Shown here piece after piece: positions 6,306 to 50,652 of a stretch of DNA of 64,000 bases. The translations under genes and the position numbers were made by a program. The stretch covers positions 9,734,001 through 9,798,000 of the forward strand of contig CM069162.1 in assembly GCA_035221665.1 (NCBI GenBank). Reading direction: 5' to 3'. The stretch's first letter is position 1; each line of letters opens with the position of its first letter. The notes under the pieces are model-generated. The model saw nothing but the letters and a program-made list of their open reading frames with translations, was not told where the DNA came from and made no database searches. This stretch comes from Okamejei kenojei. Taxonomy: Eukaryota.

Positions 6306-8135
6306 CAGTGCCCCCCATAATGTCTGGGACAAAGACCCATCATTTATTTATTTGCCTCTGTACTCCAGAATTTGAGATTTGTAATAAAAATCACACATGG
6401 TTAATGTGCACATTGTCAGATTTTATTAAAGGGTATTTATAGACATTTTGGTTTCACATGTAGGAATTCTTCTTTCAGTGTCCATCTTATTACAAATGTT
6501 GATATCGCTGTCATCGTCCATCCTGAAAAGGACGCAAGCTTCCGGCGACAATCAGTGGAAGCCATCACTTGTCGCAATAGATGATGATGGTAGCAGAATT
6601 AGCTCAGGATATTTCCAGTTTCCAGCCCTGCGACATGGATGTTTCTGCTATGGGGCCATGTAGAAATTACAGCTGTGTTTATACATAGTCTCTCCCCCTC
6701 CCCATTTCAGGGCACCATAATTTTTGGGACACATGGCTTCACAGGCTTTGTAATTGCCTCCTTAATGCAGGTATAAGAAAGCTCTCAGCACCTCGTTCTT
6801 CCTCCAGTTTTTCCATCAGCTTTAGAAACTTTTATTACTGTTTATCAACATGAGGACCAAAGTTCTGCCAATGAAAGTCAAAGAAGCCATTATGAGACTG
6901 AGAAACAAGGATAAAACTGTTAGTGATATCAGCCAAACCTCAGATTACCAAAATCAACTGTTTAGAACATCATTAAGAAGAAAGAGAGCACTGGTTAGTA
7001 TACTAATCGTAAAGGGACTGGTAGGCCAAGTAAGACTTCCAGAGCTGATGACAGAAGAATTCTGTCTATAATAAAGACAAATCCCCAAACACCTGTCCGA
7101 CAGATCAGAAACACTCGTCGGGAGTCAGGTGTGGATTTGTCAATGACCATTGTCTGCAGAAGACTTCATGAACAGAAATACAGAGGCTACACTGCAAGAT
7201 GCAAACCACTGGCTAGCCACAAAAATAGGATAGCCAGATTACAGTTTGCCAAGAAGTACTTAAAAGAGCAACCACCATTCTGGAATAAGTTCTTGTGGAC
7301 AGATGAGATGAAGATGAACCTATATCAGTGTGATGGCAAGAGCAAAGTATGGAGGAGACAAGGAAAGGCCCAAGATCCAAAGCATACCACCTCATCTGTG
7401 AAGCACGGTGGTGGGATTGTTTTGGCCTGGGCATGTATGGCTGCTGAAGGTACTGGCTCACTTCTCTTCATTGATGATACAACTGCTGATGGTAGTAGCA
7501 TAATGCAATCTGAAGTGTATATAGATGTCCTATCTGCTCAAGTTCAAACAAATGCCTCAAAACTCATTGGCCGGCGGTTCATTCTACAGCAAGACAATGA
7601 TCCCAAACATCCTGCTGAATCAACAAGGGAGATTTTCAAAGCTAAATAATTGTCATTTCTTGAGTGGCCAAGTCAATTACCTGATCTGAACACAGATGAG
7701 CATGCCTTTTATATGCTGAAGAGAAAACTGAAAAGGACTAGCCCCCCAAACAAGCATAAGCCAAAGATGGTTGCAATACAGGCTTGGCTGAGCTTCACCA
7801 AAGACACCCAGCAACTGGTGATATCCATGAATCACAGACTTCAAGCAGTCATTGCATGCAAAGAATATGCAACAAAATACTAAACATGACTACTTTCATT
7901 TTCATGACATTCATGTGTCCCAAACATTATTGTACCCCGAAATTGGGGGGGGGGGCGCTATGTATAAACACTACTGTAATGTCTACATGGTGAAACCAAA
8001 ACGTACAAAAAGGGCCTTTATTAAAATCTGACAATGTGCACTTTAACCACATGTGATTTTTTTTTTCTATTGCAAATCTCAAATTGTGAAGTACAGAGGC
8101 AAATAAATAAATGATGGGTCTTTGTCCCAAACATT
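6306..8135 (+). mobile_element. Tc1/mariner DNA transposon, IR/DR type, decayed
   Basis: TA + CAGTG start; ~220-bp inverted terminal repeats with inner and outer direct repeats (ataatg/ttt..gggaca; tgtcccaaacatt). The right ITR lacks its terminal ~13 bp; the left ITR carries a ~200-bp insertion. Confidence 0.93.
6850..7883 (+). pseudogene. Tc1 DD34E transposase, frameshifted with an internal stop
   Basis: HTH N-terminus (MRTKVLPMKVKEAI), LWTDE, SVKHGGG, QQDNDPKH, WPSQLPDLNTDEH; 34 residues between the second D and E; stop at 7647-7649. Confidence 0.92.
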
Positions 8136-9499: not shown

Positions 9500-12390
9500 A
9501 TACATTTATTTATAGCCAGGATAAAACAAAATGATGGAAACACTCACCAGGTTAGAATAAGTTATTTTCAGTCGAAGAGATGTTTGGAAGTGATGAGTAG
9601 AGTAAAGAGTATCTCAAATAAACTGGTACTCAGAAGCCCATTTCACTTCTTTATATCTACTTTATTGTTTAAGCTGGCAAACAATATTAAAAGCGAATGG
9701 AAAGGCGAGCCAAAATAATGTTAGGCAGAAATGGCCAGTCCCGATTGGGACAAAATAAAAGAGTTGGTTACCTAAAATTTGAGAATTCAATGTTGAATCC
9801 AAGAGGCTGCAAAGTGCTCAGATGGAAGTTGAGATGTTGTTCCTTAAACTTGCATTGGGCCGTCGTTATAGTGCAGGCGTCAGAGTGAAAATATGTCAGA
9901 ATGAGAGGTGAAATTAAGATGGCAGGCAAACAGATCCTCAGGGTCATTGCTGTAGACTGTATGCAGGCGCTCTGCAAAGCCATTATCTAATCTGTAGGGA
10001 GGAACTGCAGATGAGCAAACAAAATCTGTATTTGTTTTCTCTAATATAGAGATGACAGCCATTGTGAGCACTGAATGCAGTACTTGATGGGGAAAAGTGC
10101 AAGGGAATGCTGCTTCACCTAGGATGATTGCTTATGTCCCTAGCTGGTGGGAAGGGAAGGGGGTGAAGGATAGGTGTTACAATTCTTGCAGTTTCATAAG
10201 AAAGTGCCATTAAAATGTGATTGGCTGGTGGGGATGGAGGAGCAAACATTGAATTGCAAAAGAAGCAATGTATTCAGCATGTTAATAGGGGAGGAGATGG
10301 GACGTGGTGGTTGAATCTTGTTAGAACGCACACCCGTATAATGCGATAGATTAGGTTGAATGTTAAGACTGGAGGGATGATAACCGGTGGTCTCTTGTTC
10401 TTGCTCTGTCTAAGAGGAGAGGGATTGAGAGCGGAGAACAGATGTGCAATTGGATCTGCAATTGGATCCTCGACTTCCTCATTCAAAGACCACAGACTGT
10501 TCCTATTGGTGGAAATGTGCCAGCCTCGATAACATTCAGCACGGGAGCACCTCAAGGCTGCGTGCTCAGCCCCCTGCTGTACTCACTCTATACTCATGAC
10601 TGCGTAGCCGGTCATAGTGCAAACTCCATCATCAAGTTCGCTGACGACACCACTGTTGTGGGACGTATCACTGATGGGGACGAGTCAGAGTATAGAAGTG
10701 AGATCGACCGACTGACCAAATGGTGCCATCACAATAACCTGGCCCTCAACACCAGCAAAACCAAGGAACTGATTGTGGACTTTGGAAGGAGTAGGATGGG
10801 GATCCACAGTCCTGTTTATATCAACGGGTCGATGGTGGAGAGGATCAAGAGCTTCAAATTCCTGGGCGTGCATATTTCTGAAGATCTCTCCTGGTCCGAG
10901 AACACTGATGCAATTATTAAGAAAGCACATCAGCGACTCTACTTCCTGAGAAGATTACGGAGAGTCAGTATTTCAAAGAGGACACTCTCTAACTTCTATA
11001 GGTGCACAGTAGAGAGCATGCTGACCAGTTGCATCATGGCTTGGTTTGGCAACTTGAGCGCCCAGGAGCGGAAAAGACTACAAAAAGTAGTAAACACTGC
11101 CCAGTCCATCATCGACTCTGACCTCCCTACCATCGAGGGGATCTATCGCAGTCGCTGCCTCAAAAAGGCTGGCAGCATCATCAAGGACCCACACCATCCT
11201 GGCCACACACTCATCTCCCTGCTACCTTCAGGTAGAAGGTACAGGAGCCTGAAGACTACAACGTCCAGGTTCAGAAATATCTACTTCCCCACAGCCATCA
11301 GGTTATTAAACTCAACTGAAACAAATCTCTGAACACTAATAGACCATTATCTGTTTATTTGCACTTTATCTGCTTATTTATTGATGTGTGTATATATTTA
11401 TATAATGGTATAAATGCTCACTGATATGATATGTTCTGTATTCGTGCCTACTATATTCCGTTGTGCTGGATGCAAAGCAAGAATTTCATTGTCCTATCTG
11501 GGACATATGACTATTGTGACAACTCTCTTGACTTGATGAGATGCAATCAAGTGTTCTGTCCAATTTGATTGAGAATAAGCTGTGGCCAGGAAGAAGGAAG
11601 TCATTTCAAAGACATCTGTAGAATGCCTTATCGTAGGACTAAATGCAACAGAGATGGAGGAAACAGAAACATGTAAAGGAGTCCTTCAAGGAAGCGGAGT
11701 GGGGGTATTATGTCCAAGGAGGCCATGGGAATTTGCCTGCTGCCAGCCTATCTCCTGAGCTGGAGACAAAGAGATCCAGAAAAGGAAGAAGTAGAAATAG
11801 ACCATGTGAGGCAAGAGCAGGTTTGAAACCGGCAGCAAAACATGACTAAATTTTTAAGTATAAGATCGAACGTAGTTTCAGTGTAGTTTCAATGTTCCTG
11901 AAAAATAAGTTGAGGAGATGACCTAAGTCGGACTGATCAAGAATGTGCCAAGTGTTTCACAAGACAAGTGTAGCTTGGTTACGTATGTGTGCCCATAGCC
12001 AATATTTGATGTGGAGAAAATGAATGGAATTGAAGGAGGAGTTGTTCAATATGAGGACATGGTTGGCCAGGTGAATGATCATGTTGGCAGAGCATGCATA
12101 ATGCAGGCAAAGTTGTATAATTGGCTTCTAACTGGCAGATTAATTCATTTGGTTTCAGCCTATTAAATACATTGGTCCATCCGCCCCAGCCAACCGACTA
12201 CCCTCTGCACCTCAAAAATAACTTGCTGCAACTTTTCACCAAAAGTCTCCATCTCTGTTTCCTGGTACCGACAGAGGGTTGGGAACCTGAAACATTAATC
12301 ATTTCTCTTTCCACTGATGCTTTATGCTGGGTCTTCCCAGAATTTTCTGTTTTAATTTTTGTTTTTTTGGCTTTTGCAGTTTTAATTCTT
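9500..12390 (-). mobile_element. Old Penelope-like element remnant (split by a Rex1 LINE)
   Basis: ORF 9768..9983 ends KFKEQHLNFHLSTLQPLGFNIEFSNFR, the typical C-terminus of vertebrate Penelope GIY-YIG ORFs; degenerate pLTR-like ends at ~9520-9600 and ~12265-12390. Confidence 0.65.
10445..11536 (+). mobile_element. 5'-truncated Rex1/Babar-type LINE with an uninterrupted RT C-terminal ORF
   Basis: ORF 10442..11332: [53 protein letters not shown]; 3' UTR ending in a (CTTGA)n tail. Confidence 0.9.
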
Positions 12391-18020: not shown

Positions 18021-18143
18021 GAGAAGGTGGACAAAAATGCTGGAGAAACTCAGCAGGTGAGGCAGCATCTATGGAGAGAAGGAAGAGGCGACGTTTCGGA
18101 TCGAAACCCTTCTTCAGACAGCCTCTGCAGTTCTTTCTTAAGC
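18021..18143 (-). mobile_element. Short Penelope-derived insertion with an intact hammerhead core
   Basis: Minus strand CTGAAGA-AGGGTTTCGATCC-GAAACGTC at 18090-18117; 10-bp TSD atgttagcag at 18011-18020 and 18144-18153; inside an old CR1 (~17760-18530). Confidence 0.8.
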
Positions 18144-18614: not shown

Positions 18615-19800
18615 ATTAGATTAGATTCCTTTATTGTCATTCAGACCTTTCGGTCTGAACGAAATTGTTACCATACAGTCATAACATATAATAAAACAAA
18701 ACAAAACACACAATAAACACATATCCAACATCCACCATAATGAGTTCACCAGGCACCTCCTCACTGGTGGAAGGCAAAAGTCTTAAGTCATTGTCTTCAT
18801 CCCTCCTAGTTCTCCCTCTGTGCTGAGGTGATCCAGGCCTCCGATGCCGCTGGAGCACCGCAGCTCTAAGTTGGACCGCCGCTGAAGCACCGCAGCTCTA
18901 AGCTGGACCGCCACCACCGCTGGAGCACCGCAGCTCCAAACCAGGCCGTCGCTGCCGCTGGAGCACCGCAGCCGCTGGAGCACCGCAGCTCTAAGCTGGA
19001 CCGCCGCAGCCGCTGGAGCACTGCAGCTCTAAGCTGGGCCGCCGCCGCTGGAGCACCGCAGCTCTAAGCTGGGCCGCCGCCGCTGCTGGAGCAACGCAGC
19101 TCCAAACCAGGCCACCGCCGAAGCTGGAGCACCGCAGCTCTAAGATCCGCCGCTGGAGCACCGCAGCTCTAAGCTGGGCCGCCGCTGGAGCACCGCAGCT
19201 CCAAACCAGGCCGTCGCTGCCGCTGGAGCACCGCAGCCGCTGGAGCACCGCAGCTCTAAGCTGGACCGCCGCAGCCGCTGGAGCACAGCAGCTCTAAGCT
19301 GGGCCGCCGCCGCTGGAGCACCGCAGCTCTAAGCTGGGCCGCCGCCACTGCTGGAGCAACGCAGCTCCAAACCAGGCCACCGCCGAAGCTGGAGCACCGC
19401 AGCTCTAAGCTGGGCCGCCGCCGCTGGAGCACCGCAGCTCTAAGATCCACCGCTGGAGCACCGCAGCTCTAAGCTGGGCCGCCGCCGCTGGAGCACCGCA
19501 GCTCTAAGATCCGCCGCTGGAGCACCGCAGCTCTAAGCTGGGCCGCCGCCGCCGCTGAAGCACCGCAGCTCCAAACCAGGCCGCCGCCACAGCTCCGCCA
19601 TTAGGCCTCAGCACAGATGGTGACCTGAAGGGTGAGACTAAAACTCTGTTTCTCCCACCCCCCCACCCCACATACACAACCTAATAAAACAAAGTTCTAC
19701 TAAACAAACACTAGAAGACAACAAAAAAGAAAAGAAAAAAACAGACGGACTGCAGGTGAGCCGCAGCTGCCAGCCAGCGCGGCGCGGCCACTTCCGGAAC
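18615..19800 (-). mobile_element. Non-autonomous non-LTR retroelement with a Rex1/L2-type 3' tail and an internal minisatellite
   Basis: Minus strand: 5' GTTCCGGAAGTGGCCGCG; 3' perfect stem-loop TTCAGACC-GAAA-GGTCTGAA (18640-18659), then AATAAA and a (TCTAA)n tail. Confidence 0.6.
18847..19600. repeat. GC-rich minisatellite, ~22 units of 17-38 bp, with a 265-bp higher-order period
   Basis: Core GCTGGAGCACCGCAGCTC repeated. Variant markers recur 265 bp apart (ccaggccgtc at 18941 and 19206; gcaacgcagc at 19091 and 19356). Confidence 0.95.
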
Positions 19801-45245: not shown

Positions 45246-48200
45246 ACACACTCTGTGCAGAGTTAGCATTTTCTTCCTTTGAACATGTGGGTTTTCCCCG
45301 GGTGCTCCAATTTTTATCCTATGACCCAAAGATATGGTGTAGGCTTAATTGCTAATGCAGGTAGCTGGGTGGGGGAATCAGAAGAGAGTCAATGGGCATG
45401 TGAGGGACAATAGATTGCAGGAAAATAAGCTGTGGGTGGGACTGGTGGGATTATTCCTAGAAACAGCATTGAGTTGATGCGCAAAAGGGCAACCTCATGG
45501 CATTATGAAATGTGAAAATACAAAATGTTGTATATTTTAAAATATAAAATATTGTAAAATGTTATACAAAATACAAATCGTCATGATATTAGTCACATTT
45601 CAAGTTGATTTTGTAGGGAATATTTCACGAAAATCCAGATTATAACTAGAATCTTGCCAATCAAAGTTCTGTGTAGCAATACATCAAAACTTTAGGAAAG
45701 GGCTGAAATAAAACAGAAAATGAAGATCACGAAACATCAATTGAAAGAGAAACTATTAAAATATCTGGCCATTGACATTCAAATGGCTGTTATCATCATT
45801 TGCTTCTGAAACGCCAAGCCACAGATTACTTAAAATTGCCTGCTTTGGTCTTTTAAACCATTACTTTTCAATGGGTAATGATGGTTCTGCAGCCGTCAAC
45901 ATTTTTTAGTTCTGGAAGGATAAAATAACATATCATTAGATGTAGAATTACAGCACTGCAACCTTTTGACTCGTGTGACTAGATGAGAAGAATTACCTGA
46001 GTAATTTAGAGCGTTGCTCATTACCCGTGTTTTAACCTTCCCACAGTAAAGCATGGGTTGCTCTTAACTGTACTTTGTGCTTCAAGTGCAAGATCAACTA
46101 ATTATCTACGAAAAGGGACTGTGGTTAGCTAAACAGGAAGGAGGACTCTGATCTCTAATCCTTTCCCTGGGTGAATTTTAAATACACACCAATAATGGAA
46201 ATACAGTATTATTGGCACTGGCACCAAATAAACAAAGGCATCTTTCAATTGGAGGCATAGATTCCTGCTCCGTGGATATAAATGGCCATGACTAAAACCA
46301 CGAAATCTCATTGTTCATTTCTGCAATAATGTCCAATAACAACATTATTTTCCCTGGCCTTATTCCACTTATCCTATATGTTACTTTATAGGGCAGCTGG
46401 TCATTTATAATTATGTTCTTATATCTGACTTGGGCCTGAGTGTTATCAGAATTAAACAATTAGCACAGTGAGGAATTGGGCAGGTTGTATTGCCAAGTTT
46501 TATGGCTAATAGTTTAATCTGGTAAGTGCCTTACTGCACTTATTTAATATGTGTTTGGATATATTCAGTTCCTCTGAAGGCACAATAATGGATAAAGCCA
46601 GTTGGCATCTGAACAGTGATAAAATCAGTTTTTACCTTTTTTGTGTTCAAAATAACCACCTAACGCTTAAGAGTTGATAATGCATGTTGAAAACATTAAG
46701 GAGGTCCTATATGTGTATCGTGTCCTATTTGTGCATGATGTCCTATATGTTGGGGGTGATGTGTGGGTTAAAATAAAACAGTGTTGGTGGTCACTTTGAA
46801 GCAGTAAACTTCCATTGTGGGTCCTAAAGCTGTGGTTACATTAATTAATATAACCCTTTTAAAGCAATGGCTTTGTGTGACATGCACTTCCGACTGAAAA
46901 GATTTAATTTGGAAGTTTCATTATTATCATTTATTCAAAAGATGAGTGGATTGCTGCAGAGTGGATTGTTTGTATTTGCCACCACGTTTAGTACAACTAC
47001 AGAATAATGACAAAAGCACGACATCCATACGAATCTTAAAAATAGTGTCCCTGCTGAAGAACGCATTGTTTCAATGACCCATTCAGTGTTGAGTGAATAA
47101 ATATTCCCAACTATGGCTGGAGGGAGAAATCACAATTGAAACCTAATCATTGTGGGAGAGATATTTCAGCTAAAGTTGTCACCAACTAGTGTATGGTGCA
47201 TTAGTTAATGAGCACATCTGTTAATTTGCTCTTCCAGTTCCATTTTTGAGTGATGTCCTCATAGATCAATATACTAGGTGATGGTAGTTGCACAATTATA
47301 CAGATCACTTGACTGATGGAATGTTTGAAAGCTTTTTTTTTTTAATTGTCCCCATTTTTGTGAAATGTAGTTGTTTGTTGATGGGAGTCATGTGGAGAGA
47401 TATGTTTTCTGACATTAAAATGGAAGAGAAGCAGGTGTGCACTTAACATCTGGTTGGCTTGCATGAATCGAGCGGTTGCTGCAGAGTTGGTTCAGACGGA
47501 CTAGCAGACGTCTTGATTAAATCAGTTCCTGATGTATTTTACTGTGAACAAAGTAAGGTTTGGCTGGACTCCTCTGGGCTGAAAGAGAGAACTCTCCCTG
47601 TTGGTCAGTAAATAGAGATCTCAGTGGTGAAAAACAGCTGGAGCTTCACAAGATTCTCTTACTGTCAGCAGAGGATTTCTGCTTTGATGAAGGGCCAGTT
47701 GGCAGTTGCCAGTTGGCCTCGAATCATATTCTTTCAATTAATAATTTTTCTACAAAGATTTAAAAACGACCAGATGGGACATGTAAAGGGAAAGCACTCT
47801 ATTTTGATAGACCTTTCTTTTTATTACTCTTAAAATTTGGTGCCCGTATATGTCAGCTCCTCTTTCCTCACTTATGAGACAACATTACTCCAGATGTTCA
47901 TCGCCCTATGATATCTCTCCTAAGTGGCCACCTTCAGGTGAGTTGACACAGAACAGTGTGAAATGGCAATGTTTAGGGCATCATTGTCGAACTGGCCCAA
48001 AGTTCACAATTCTGGGAATGATTTCCCACCATCCTTGTATGTTATGCTGGGATGTTTGAACCAATTTCATACATTAAACTAACATTACTTAATTCCTTTA
48101 ATTCAGTACAAACCAGGACTTGAACCGTGATAGTTTGTTTTACCCACCAGATTATTCGGGAAGCATTATTGCCTGATCTTTTGACATTTTAATGTTTTAA

Positions 48201-48744
48201 TTTCCAGCATTTATCAAATGTAGTTTAGGTTGTTAGGTTTAGTTTATTCGGCACTACTTTTTTGTTACTCTTCAAGTTTTGCCATTAAATCTTGGATCAG
48301 TTAAGGGTATTGAGAGTAAATTATTTTGGGAAAGGATATTGAGGTAAGATTGCAGATTGTAGGATGGAAATTTGTTGAAAAGTGAAACATGTTCATTGAT
48401 TTATCCCAAAGTGCAGCCTGATTAATTCTGTACACTTGGTGGAATCTTTACTTGAATACATGAGGAATTACCCGTTACACTTTAAATCTCAAGGGATTTT
48501 CATGTTTTGAATTTTAGGGTCCATGTAAGATATGGAAGTTTATAAATTGATTGTTTTCAGTTCAGCAATTGTAAATTGTCATATAAATTACAGCTGTAAA
48601 GTGTTTGGTATAATTTGTTAATTACAATGTGTGAACCATGGCTATTTTCAGAAGTACAGTAAACCCTCGTTATAACAGATCATGTGGGGGGAAATGGTGT
48701 TAGTTATTGACAATTGTCCGCTATAACCAAGGAAGGTATTATCT

Positions 48745-49109
48745 TGGAGTAACACAGCGGGTCAGACAGCAGCTCTGGAGAAAAGGAATAGGTGATGTTT
48801 CGGGTCAAGACCCTTTTTCCTCACAACCCAAAACATCACTTCCATTTCTCCAGAGATGCTGTCTAACCCACTGAGTTAGACAGCTTTTTGTGTCTATCTT
48901 CATTTTAAACAACATCTACAGTTCCTTCCTGCACACAATGTGTGTTGTTGAAACAAAGAACTGCAGATGATGGTTAATACACTAAAGGACACAAAGTGCA
49001 GGAGTAACTCAACGGGTCAGGCAGCATCTCTGCAGAACATGGATAGGTGACATTGAGACCCTTCTTCAGACTGATTCAGTCTGCTGAGTTACTCCAGCAT
49101 TTTGTGTCA
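48745..49109. mobile_element. Two Penelope-derived foldback insertions nested in the Tigger-like element
   Basis: pLTR consensus arms at ~48745-48930 and ~48950-49109. Confidence 0.75.
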
Positions 49110-49283
49110 CTTCACCTTAAAACTAGGCACTGATGCCACTGGTCTGTATCAGCAAGCCCTTCCTCACCAACTACCACATGGTCCGGTTGAAATGACTGTT
49201 GTTGTGGCTCACGTTGTAGCCCTTCACTGACCGTGCTTTCTTCAGGCCGCCGCTACCGCCAGGATGTGCTTGGTCATTGGTGG
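49110..49283 (-). pseudogene. Decayed histone H1 (H15 globular domain)-like fragment
   Basis: Minus-strand translation across two frameshifts: PPMTKHILAVAAA / LKKARSVKGYNVSHNNSHFNRTMW*LVRKGLLIQTSGISA / SFKVK, versus the H1 consensus PPVSELITKAVAAS...[47 protein letters not shown]. Confidence 0.75.
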
Positions 49284-50652
49284 AATCTGTCAGCGAGTCC
49301 TGAGGAGGAGGAGGAGGCAGCATGGGTGCGGGGAGTGAACAAAGTGACGGCCAACAGGAAGAAGCGGCGGCTGGTGAGCGGGGTGTGAGCCCCACAGACA
49401 TCTACGCGCGGCAACAGCGTGAAGAAAGTGTTGTCCCCAGGGGCTGCAACATGAGGTGCGACAACAACTGTGTCAACCGGACCTTGCTATTGGTGATGAT
49501 AGCTGGGGGTAGAGTCGGCGGCTGGGTGTTGTGCGCAGGTACCTCTGCTAAAACCAAAATCTGTTATAAAGAAGTCCGTTAAAATGAGGGTTTACTGTAG
49601 TGGCCAACAAGATCTGGGCAGTGCATTATTTGAACGATTTACCACCAACACATAAAAGAGTTTCAGTATTATTATGATAATATACAAAGATTAGTCTAAA
49701 TTAATTTAGTAAATAAGATAACCTGGTAGTGAAATAAGAAAATAATTCTGAGTTAAGTGCAGTTTCAGTTTGAAGATTTCCATGAAAATAAATCTCACTG
49801 AAGATAAATCACTTATCACTATTCACCTTGAACAGATAATGTCATCAAGTATCCATAGCTCGTTTTTATTATCTGATTAATGGCATGTGAAATGCTACTT
49901 CTCCTGAAATAATGCATAAATCTTTTTAAGCAAATTAGTTTGATTCCCCCCCCCCCCCCCCCCAAATCCAAAGTGTAATCACAGCTTTTATTCTTATTAA
50001 CTAAAGCAAAATAATTATTTTATTTGGTTTTCCATGATCTTGCCACCATTCTCTGTTAGTGGTTTATTTTTAGGAAAAGGTAAATAAAGTTCATTACAGA
50101 TGCCTTCATGTATGTGAATTGGTGTCTTTTTTTGGGTGGAATTAATGAACTGAAAACAGAAGAATCTTTCTTAAAATAATTTGGTAAGTGGTTGTTTAAA
50201 TAAGTTTGAAATAGACATTCAAAAGAGCTTTTTAAATAATATATTGTAACTACGCACCTGGTAATCTAACTGTGTTCTCTATCCTAAAAAATAATTATAA
50301 CTTGAAGTAATGCTCAGGGTTTTTATGAGCAGACCTGCTGAGAAGCTGCATGACAACATTAGCTGAATGTGCATGTGTGACCGCTTGGTGCTACATTCTA
50401 TCTTCCATTGGTTCAAATACTGAGATGAAAACGTTTGAAAGCACACCTAAACAGTGATGTGTATGCATGTACAGGAAAAATAGGAACATTTCAGGTTGTC
50501 AGTTTGACAGTGGTGTACATGAGGGTTTGTTTTGGAATACAATATCAACTTGTCAGCATAAACAAGGCATGTTGGTGTTAGTTTGGAATCTCATTGTCGG
50601 GGCAAGTTTTTCTGTGTTGGGTTATCCGACAACAGCAGTGCAGATGGTTTAG

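Follow-up and report, generated by a model that had tools for sequence, protein, structure and literature searches.

How a fragment of a linker histone came to lie between the ends of a DNA transposon, and whether it has been carried around the genome, is the question raised by a 941 bp unit within the window analysed here, a 64,000 nt stretch of the skate Okamejei kenojei (contig CM069162.1, positions 9,734,001 to 9,798,000). The reading that we regard as quite probable is that of an old non-autonomous, transposase-free pogo-type element with terminal inverted repeats (TIRs), which harbours two head-to-head fragments of a histone H1 variant and has spread them as an inert passenger.

The limits of the unit, placed at 48657-49597 in a preliminary description of this DNA, were borne out. 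The left (48657..48679, plus strand) and right (49575..49597, minus strand) TIRs are each 23 bp long and agree at 20 of 23 letters, with TA target-site duplications outside both, at 48655..48656 by reading of the sequence and at 49598..49599, where the flanks of other contigs additionally diverge. Ten of ten shuffles of the window yielded no TA-started 25 nt inverted repeats with three or fewer mismatches, and the exact pair of TIRs occurs once within the 64-kb window, as the element itself. Inside the left TIR, the subterminal arm (48680..48744, plus strand) contains a reversed and separated TIR core at 48718-48730 (4 mismatches of 13, weak alone), whilst the right interior and subterminal arm (49502..49574, minus strand) carries two tandem copies of this core, at 49561-73 (2 mismatches of 13) and 49545-57 (4 mismatches of 13, likewise weak alone).

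With regard to superfamily, the TA duplication and the short TIR (23 bp, within the 40 bp expected of the pogo type) are those of pogo elements; an empty site was not seen among the aligned contigs. The pogoR and Lemi families, in the portions of Gao et al. 2020 (PMC7386202) available to us, similarly have a TA duplication and a TIR of at most 40 bp that starts CAGTA. By-eye comparison with supplement rows of that paper reveals that the first 16 letters of the left TIR equal a listed pogoR TIR and that 19 of its first 20 letters equal a listed Lemi TIR, with near-identical letters in the rows for Vollenhovia pogoR and for Aspergillus and Lipomyces Lemi, families whose elements carry a transposase. 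The pogoR and Lemi families are, however, defined by their transposase, whereas the window element has none and is likened to them by its TIR alone. The TIR of the whale-shark Tigger, the lone cartilaginous-fish Tigger row in the same supplement, is less similar. The earlier label 'Pogo/Tigger-like' is thus better supported in its first half than in its second, and 'pogo superfamily' is the safer name. As far as the accessible text of PMC1636448 goes, the Emigrant MITE/Lemi1 system of Arabidopsis is also non-autonomous, pogo-related and present in some hundreds of copies, and its subterminal repeats, as in the window element, are contiguous at one end but reversed and separated at the other; it differs in that captured host coding sequence is not mentioned.

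No partner transposase (CENP-B/HTH_Tnp_Tc5 with DDE_1) was found: metagenome scans for the TIR gave 0 and then 4 loci, at which the ORFs next to the motif, read by eye, include none recognisable as a transposase, and these four loci display no H1 or arm similarity beyond the TIR. One metagenome contig (L003, 1216-1480) holds a 195 bp TA-flanked MITE-like unit, with a TIR 93 % like that of the element over 30 letters, further nested TIR copies and no H1 cargo. Elsewhere in the window, TA-started long inverted repeats at 6345-8109 enclose a 216 aa frame (6999-7646), which we take to resemble a Tc1-type transposase, and a 321 aa open frame at 10367-11329 presumably resembles a LINE reverse transcriptase.

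The interior of the element is, as had been described, rich in GC and CpG: 49110-49545 has 57 % GC and 21 CpG, compared with a flanking GC content of 37 %. Apart from it, the window has a single GC-rich region, a tandem array at 18830-19600 (about 70 % GC, with units of roughly 20-30 bp). Within the interior, a first H1 fragment (copy 1) occupies 49110..49283 on the minus strand and corresponds to residues about 50-119 of the H1 variant P0006, as judged by Pfam, PDB and alignment. All three H1-like peptides proposed for this strand are present. Translated as a minus-strand frame (49245-49108, stops read as X), the fragment matches Linker_histone (PF00538) at 49108-49245 with E=2.5e-4, although the 21.7 bits on this 46-residue piece fall below the 22.4-bit cut-off; two of the ten frames tested matched this family, both over one stretch. 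All nine PDB matches of copy 1 are H1/H5 chains, and these, with the protein search and alignment described below, make its homology to H1 clear despite the sub-threshold Pfam score. The missing segment that had been suspected in the fragment was confirmed: 11 residues of the parent are gone at 49245, with a frameshift at the same point. A stop follows at 49173-49171 and a second frameshift near 49125.

Beside copy 1 lies not a promoter but more histone. The preliminary description had read this side as upstream non-coding GC-rich DNA with a CACCAAT box at ~49488-49494, and had argued from it for capture at the DNA level rather than by way of a retrocopy. Frameshift-aware alignment and DNA comparison instead assign 49283..49500, on the plus strand, to a second, inverted and more decayed H1 coding copy (copy 2), spanning residues about 7-100 of P0006: an N-terminal tail followed by a globular domain with deletions and frameshifts. 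P0006 aligns to plus-strand 49280-49500 with a frameshift-aware score of 95.5, against 46.6 +/- 7.9 (maximum 66) for 40 shuffles and 33.5 for the canonical H1 P0031 on the same stretch. At the DNA level, copy 2 matches copy 1 with a local score of 44 (best of 1000 shuffles, 27); the two are about 75 % alike over 49 bp and meet head-to-head near 49283, so that the host-derived interior amounts to about 390 bp of H1-variant coding sequence. The CACCAAT letters sit at 49489..49495 (minus strand), within codons of copy 2, and at two of the seven, 49489 and 49491, the orthologous contigs of sequencing runs X14 and X17 have another letter. Capture of a promoter was therefore rejected, since the stretch at 49284-49500 is coding, and neither a promoter nor a UTR or poly(A) could be recognised in the element. 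With the cargo consisting of two coding fragments rather than a fragment and its promoter, the argument for DNA-level capture falls. Canonical H1 genes are mostly intronless, and the loss of introns would thus likely not settle the choice between a DNA and an RNA route.

By residue identity, the donor is a chondrichthyan clade of H1 variants. A search of 1.84 billion representatives with copy 1 returned 10 matches, among which the four of highest identity (57-61 %) comprise two named H1-like proteins, from shark and skate, as well as two Logan ORFs without a name; a word-indexed protein search found nothing among longer proteins, and an alignment search gave three matches, none of them a new family copy. 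The named proteins fall within a clade that takes in 15 elasmobranch H1 variants out of 16 matches (XP_078280407.1, P0007 and P0018-P0030). Copy 1 is identical to these 15 at 21-25 of 40 positions, as opposed to 16-20 of 40 for four canonical H1s, and its best match is XP_078280407.1 of Rhinoraja (24/40). At five diagnostic columns it carries the variant residue three times and the canonical residue not once; on both grounds a canonical H1 was rejected as donor. For copy 2, the N-terminal tail of P0006 is matched as well. Where 'an H1 or H1-related sperm protein' had been proposed, the H1 variant stands and the sperm protein is not supported. The donor variants have full ORFs of 213-360 aa, whereas the cargo is without a start, 11 core residues and the entire C-terminal tail.

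The wider divergent H1 clade (P0006, P0007, P0018-P0030 and P0032) extends across sharks, rays and possibly a chimaera, with up to four genes on same-sized contigs in Rhinoraja and two each in Hypanus and Heterodontus. The paralogue type closest to the cargo is absent among the matches from Amblyraja and Leucoraja, reflecting either missing annotation or loss.

The remainder of the interior is occupied by two palindromic pieces of one abundant short interspersed repeat, insert 1 at 48745..48931 (ends approximate) and insert 2 at 48951..49108, the end of which adjoins copy 1. About 10-23 overlapping matches to this repeat occur elsewhere in the window. Both inserts had been called Penelope-derived; their presence was verified, and the Penelope label is plausible without being upheld by an Rfam hammerhead match, both inserts displaying decayed core-like letters only. 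Across the whole window, Rfam gave no match at gathering score, and sub-threshold hairpin matches alone within the element. Hammerhead motifs are described as widespread in fish genomes in the available part of PMC4209133. Two intact minimal hammerhead-like cores lie in short-repeat copies at 18117(-) and 35127(-), compared with 0-2 in 20 shuffles. Six-frame Pfam scans of 36001-64000 returned no families; they also missed obvious reverse-transcriptase pieces, and thus say nothing on a host gene or on the surrounding DNA being an intron, as had been supposed. That the 3′ piece SFKVK merely continues the short repeat was rejected, for the repeat copies of the window often end there, though the letters are partly alike. 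Insert 2 had furthermore been taken for a nested arrival. At least its end adjoins the H1 piece in many other contigs, and it is probably a family feature that predates amplification rather than a late insertion into this copy.

This same junction bears on a different history, in which the H1 pieces were retroposed as a chimera with the short repeat of insert 2, and a few came to lie inside a TIR element whose family is otherwise cargo-free. Such a history would account for an H1 3′ end that adjoins the short repeat in many contigs, and the inserts themselves show inverted partial duplications; it is at odds with the lack of a poly(A) or tandem tail at the end of either H1 fragment. The copies in other contigs speak to it more directly. 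Part of 47800-50500 is contained in 20 of 24 sequencing runs, from seven organisms. Contigs were aligned to 49100-49940 at 80 % likeness, the left arm and the repeat inserts lying outside the aligned region, and counts were taken from X1, which may be the window's own sample, and from X14 and X17, which represent other organisms; X19, marked 'probably DNA', was left out. Behind 49599, loose ends occur in 170 of 946 contigs in X1, 174 of 991 in X14 and 160 of 885 in X17, with an agreement of 0.36-0.38, and mark numerous unrelated sites of insertion, with both ends of the element probably counted together. Contigs sharing a letter other than that of the window number 55, 60 and 48 (X1, X14 and X17, respectively) at 49147, 58, 49 and 51 at 49195, and 40, 48 and 33 at 49446, and H1 pieces are present on at least 48-60 contigs per run. 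By eye, the majority letters restore parent residues at 49147/49149, 49232, 49446 and 49467.

In X1 the single-copy flank has a depth of 27.8, relative to which summed depth reaches 3753 (135x) for copy 1, 2398 (86x) for copy 2 and 14609 (525x) for the arm, the last of which is shared by both ends of the element; summed depths are not copy numbers, but taken as a rough guide they point to some 250 elements and more than 100 H1 halves. A cargo depth of the same order as that of the arm is not what retroposed chimeras would lead one to expect, and nor are the joints between the parts. Among the 15 joints listed, from 132 in all, three link the right arm with an H1 piece (each in a single X1 contig, sides 30-63) and five link the two H1 copies on one strand, in contigs of X1, X14 and X17, so that the inverted pair recurs in three organisms; joints at low likeness can arise from repeats. 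The consensus of loose ends in other contigs, moreover, resembles by eye 49502-49519, the arm interior directly behind copy 2. Retroposition would, for its part, explain why repeat-like letters precede 49111 in 21 X17 contigs whose alignment starts there, why 96, 98 and 81 contigs (X1, X14 and X17, respectively) run past the ends of the aligned stretch, and why long H1 pieces begin at 49100-49105. It would also suit the 141 X1 contigs (31+34+44+32) that break away within the right arm and then show a median of 119-197 letters with no match at 80 %, these being either too diverged or cargo-free. Weighing these points, we hold the retroposed chimera to be rather unlikely. The claim of an amplified family is supported by the many TIR flanks and cargo contigs, with three joints linking cargo to arm; no complete second element was seen in the aligned 49100-49940. 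The element likely belongs, on the evidence of these contigs, to a multicopy family that spread its H1 cargo to a hundred or more places.

A single event at this locus would be the simplest alternative to such a family: a one-off gap-filling capture, with the other H1-like contigs being ordinary pseudogenes or tandem copies from a donor cluster. Most animal Pack-TIRs are single-copy and transposition-independent according to the available sections of Tan et al. 2021 (PMC8277862), in which gap filling is given as the common route of capture, and the donor genes are indeed clustered, four Rhinoraja matches lying on a same-sized contig. Against this, cargo contigs number at least 48-60 per genome, whilst named genes of the donor clade number at most four per species among the 16 matches, and cargo-to-arm joints occur in other contigs. 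Derived lesions are, in addition, common to unrelated ORFs, and together these points make a one-off capture highly improbable.

The lesions concerned are those of the Logan ORFs P0005 and P0008/P0011, which are identical to copy 1 at 23 of 40 positions and hence too distant to be the same locus in close relatives. As in copy 1, an out-of-frame stretch directly before LKK replaces the 11 residues of the parent, and the recorded ORFs end at codons where copy 1 has stops. Run X14 carries 11 letters behind 49404, and with these restored copy 2 shows by eye the same junction as copy 1. Lesions held in common by P0005, P0008/P0011, copy 1 and the restored copy 2 indicate that the cargo was probably already broken before it was duplicated and spread. 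In a tree, the clade of copy 1 with P0005/P0008/P0011 has support of 95/89, falling to 67/0 once six CpG-prone columns are dropped; tree support was accordingly set aside as proof of a single origin, and the case for a single master rests on the lesions. P0005 holds the N-terminal tail and the globular part in one sense unit, with no match upstream to the window's inverted neighbour, and may represent the single-unit form of the cargo. A search of the ESM Atlas with P0005 gave no usable match.

The insertion at this site is present in three organisms, since it recurs with its right flank in organisms E and F (records 9 and 18), where 33 and 40 of about 840 letters differ from the window. Within X1 alone, likeness falls below 90 % in 657 of 946 contigs. 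Set against the close agreement of the orthologous contigs, this divergence places the origin of the family long before the three organisms split.

Alternatively, the head-to-head cargo could have a function, with read-through transcripts folding into hairpins and yielding small RNAs that target the donor H1 variant, or with some copy keeping an open H1 frame. The interior is an imperfect palindrome, with a folding energy z of about -2.5 relative to 100 pair-shuffles, and the inverted pair recurs in other contigs. Both copies nevertheless carry stops and frameshifts, with lesions common across copies; likeness between the halves is only about 75 % over 49 bp, and that of most copies lies under 90 %. 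Orthologous copies, by inspection, differ by about 4-5 %, indels included, and are kept no better than the flank. Functional cargo is therefore very unlikely. We attach an equally slender chance to the bolder version, a Pack-TIR family numbering hundreds of copies in a vertebrate, with mirrored cargo that serves as a dispersed source of hairpin RNA that silences or tunes the donor H1 and has been kept across several skate species.

For an element that spread an inert passenger, the course of events may be reconstructed as follows. One capture would have brought coding DNA, from codon about 7 to about 120, into a pogo-type MITE, after which 11 residues would have been lost with a frameshift and a second frameshift acquired near the 3′ end. 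An inverted duplication would then have arisen, probably through template switching during repair or replication, and the short repeat would have been inserted. Amplification to roughly 100-250 copies would have followed by cut-and-paste, with transposase supplied in trans, and then prolonged decay, to a large extent at CpG sites. No protein would be made from the cargo.

In plants, TIR transposons commonly capture and amplify genes; in vertebrates, such amplified capture is reported in the available text of PMC8277862 as rare and low-copy. A Pack-TIR is defined there as 100-5000 bp of host sequence between both ends of one TIR element; 370 were identified in 100 genomes, four of them multicopy, with a frog example of three copies and none in the elephant shark, the one chondrichthyan surveyed. 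The multicopy examples spread by transposition, with template switching proposed as a route, and like the window element they enclose a host interior in one TIR element, TcMariner-type carriers being common. The window element differs from these animal examples in that its cargo forms a head-to-head duplicate and occurs on at least 48-60 contigs per genome. As the search demanded 90 % identity to the parent, an old family of this kind would be missed; here, the donor clade and the closest protein were found, and identity to the parent likely falls short of that figure. We found no account in the literature of this family or of an H1 captured by a TIR element, and the available part of a recent preprint (bioRxiv 10.1101/2025.06.08.657570) makes no mention of the family; a consensus may exist in Repbase, Dfam or species repeat libraries.

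The family looks far larger than the four multicopy cases of Tan et al. 2021. If its hundred-plus cargo copies are real, then old and large vertebrate Pack-TIR families exist that searches for young captures have missed, and a comparison of copies that hold one H1 half with those that hold two would reveal the order of capture, deletion and inverted duplication. The finding also points to a divergent clade of H1 in sharks and rays, and advises caution, in that scattered H1-like matches in skate genomes may be transposon cargo.
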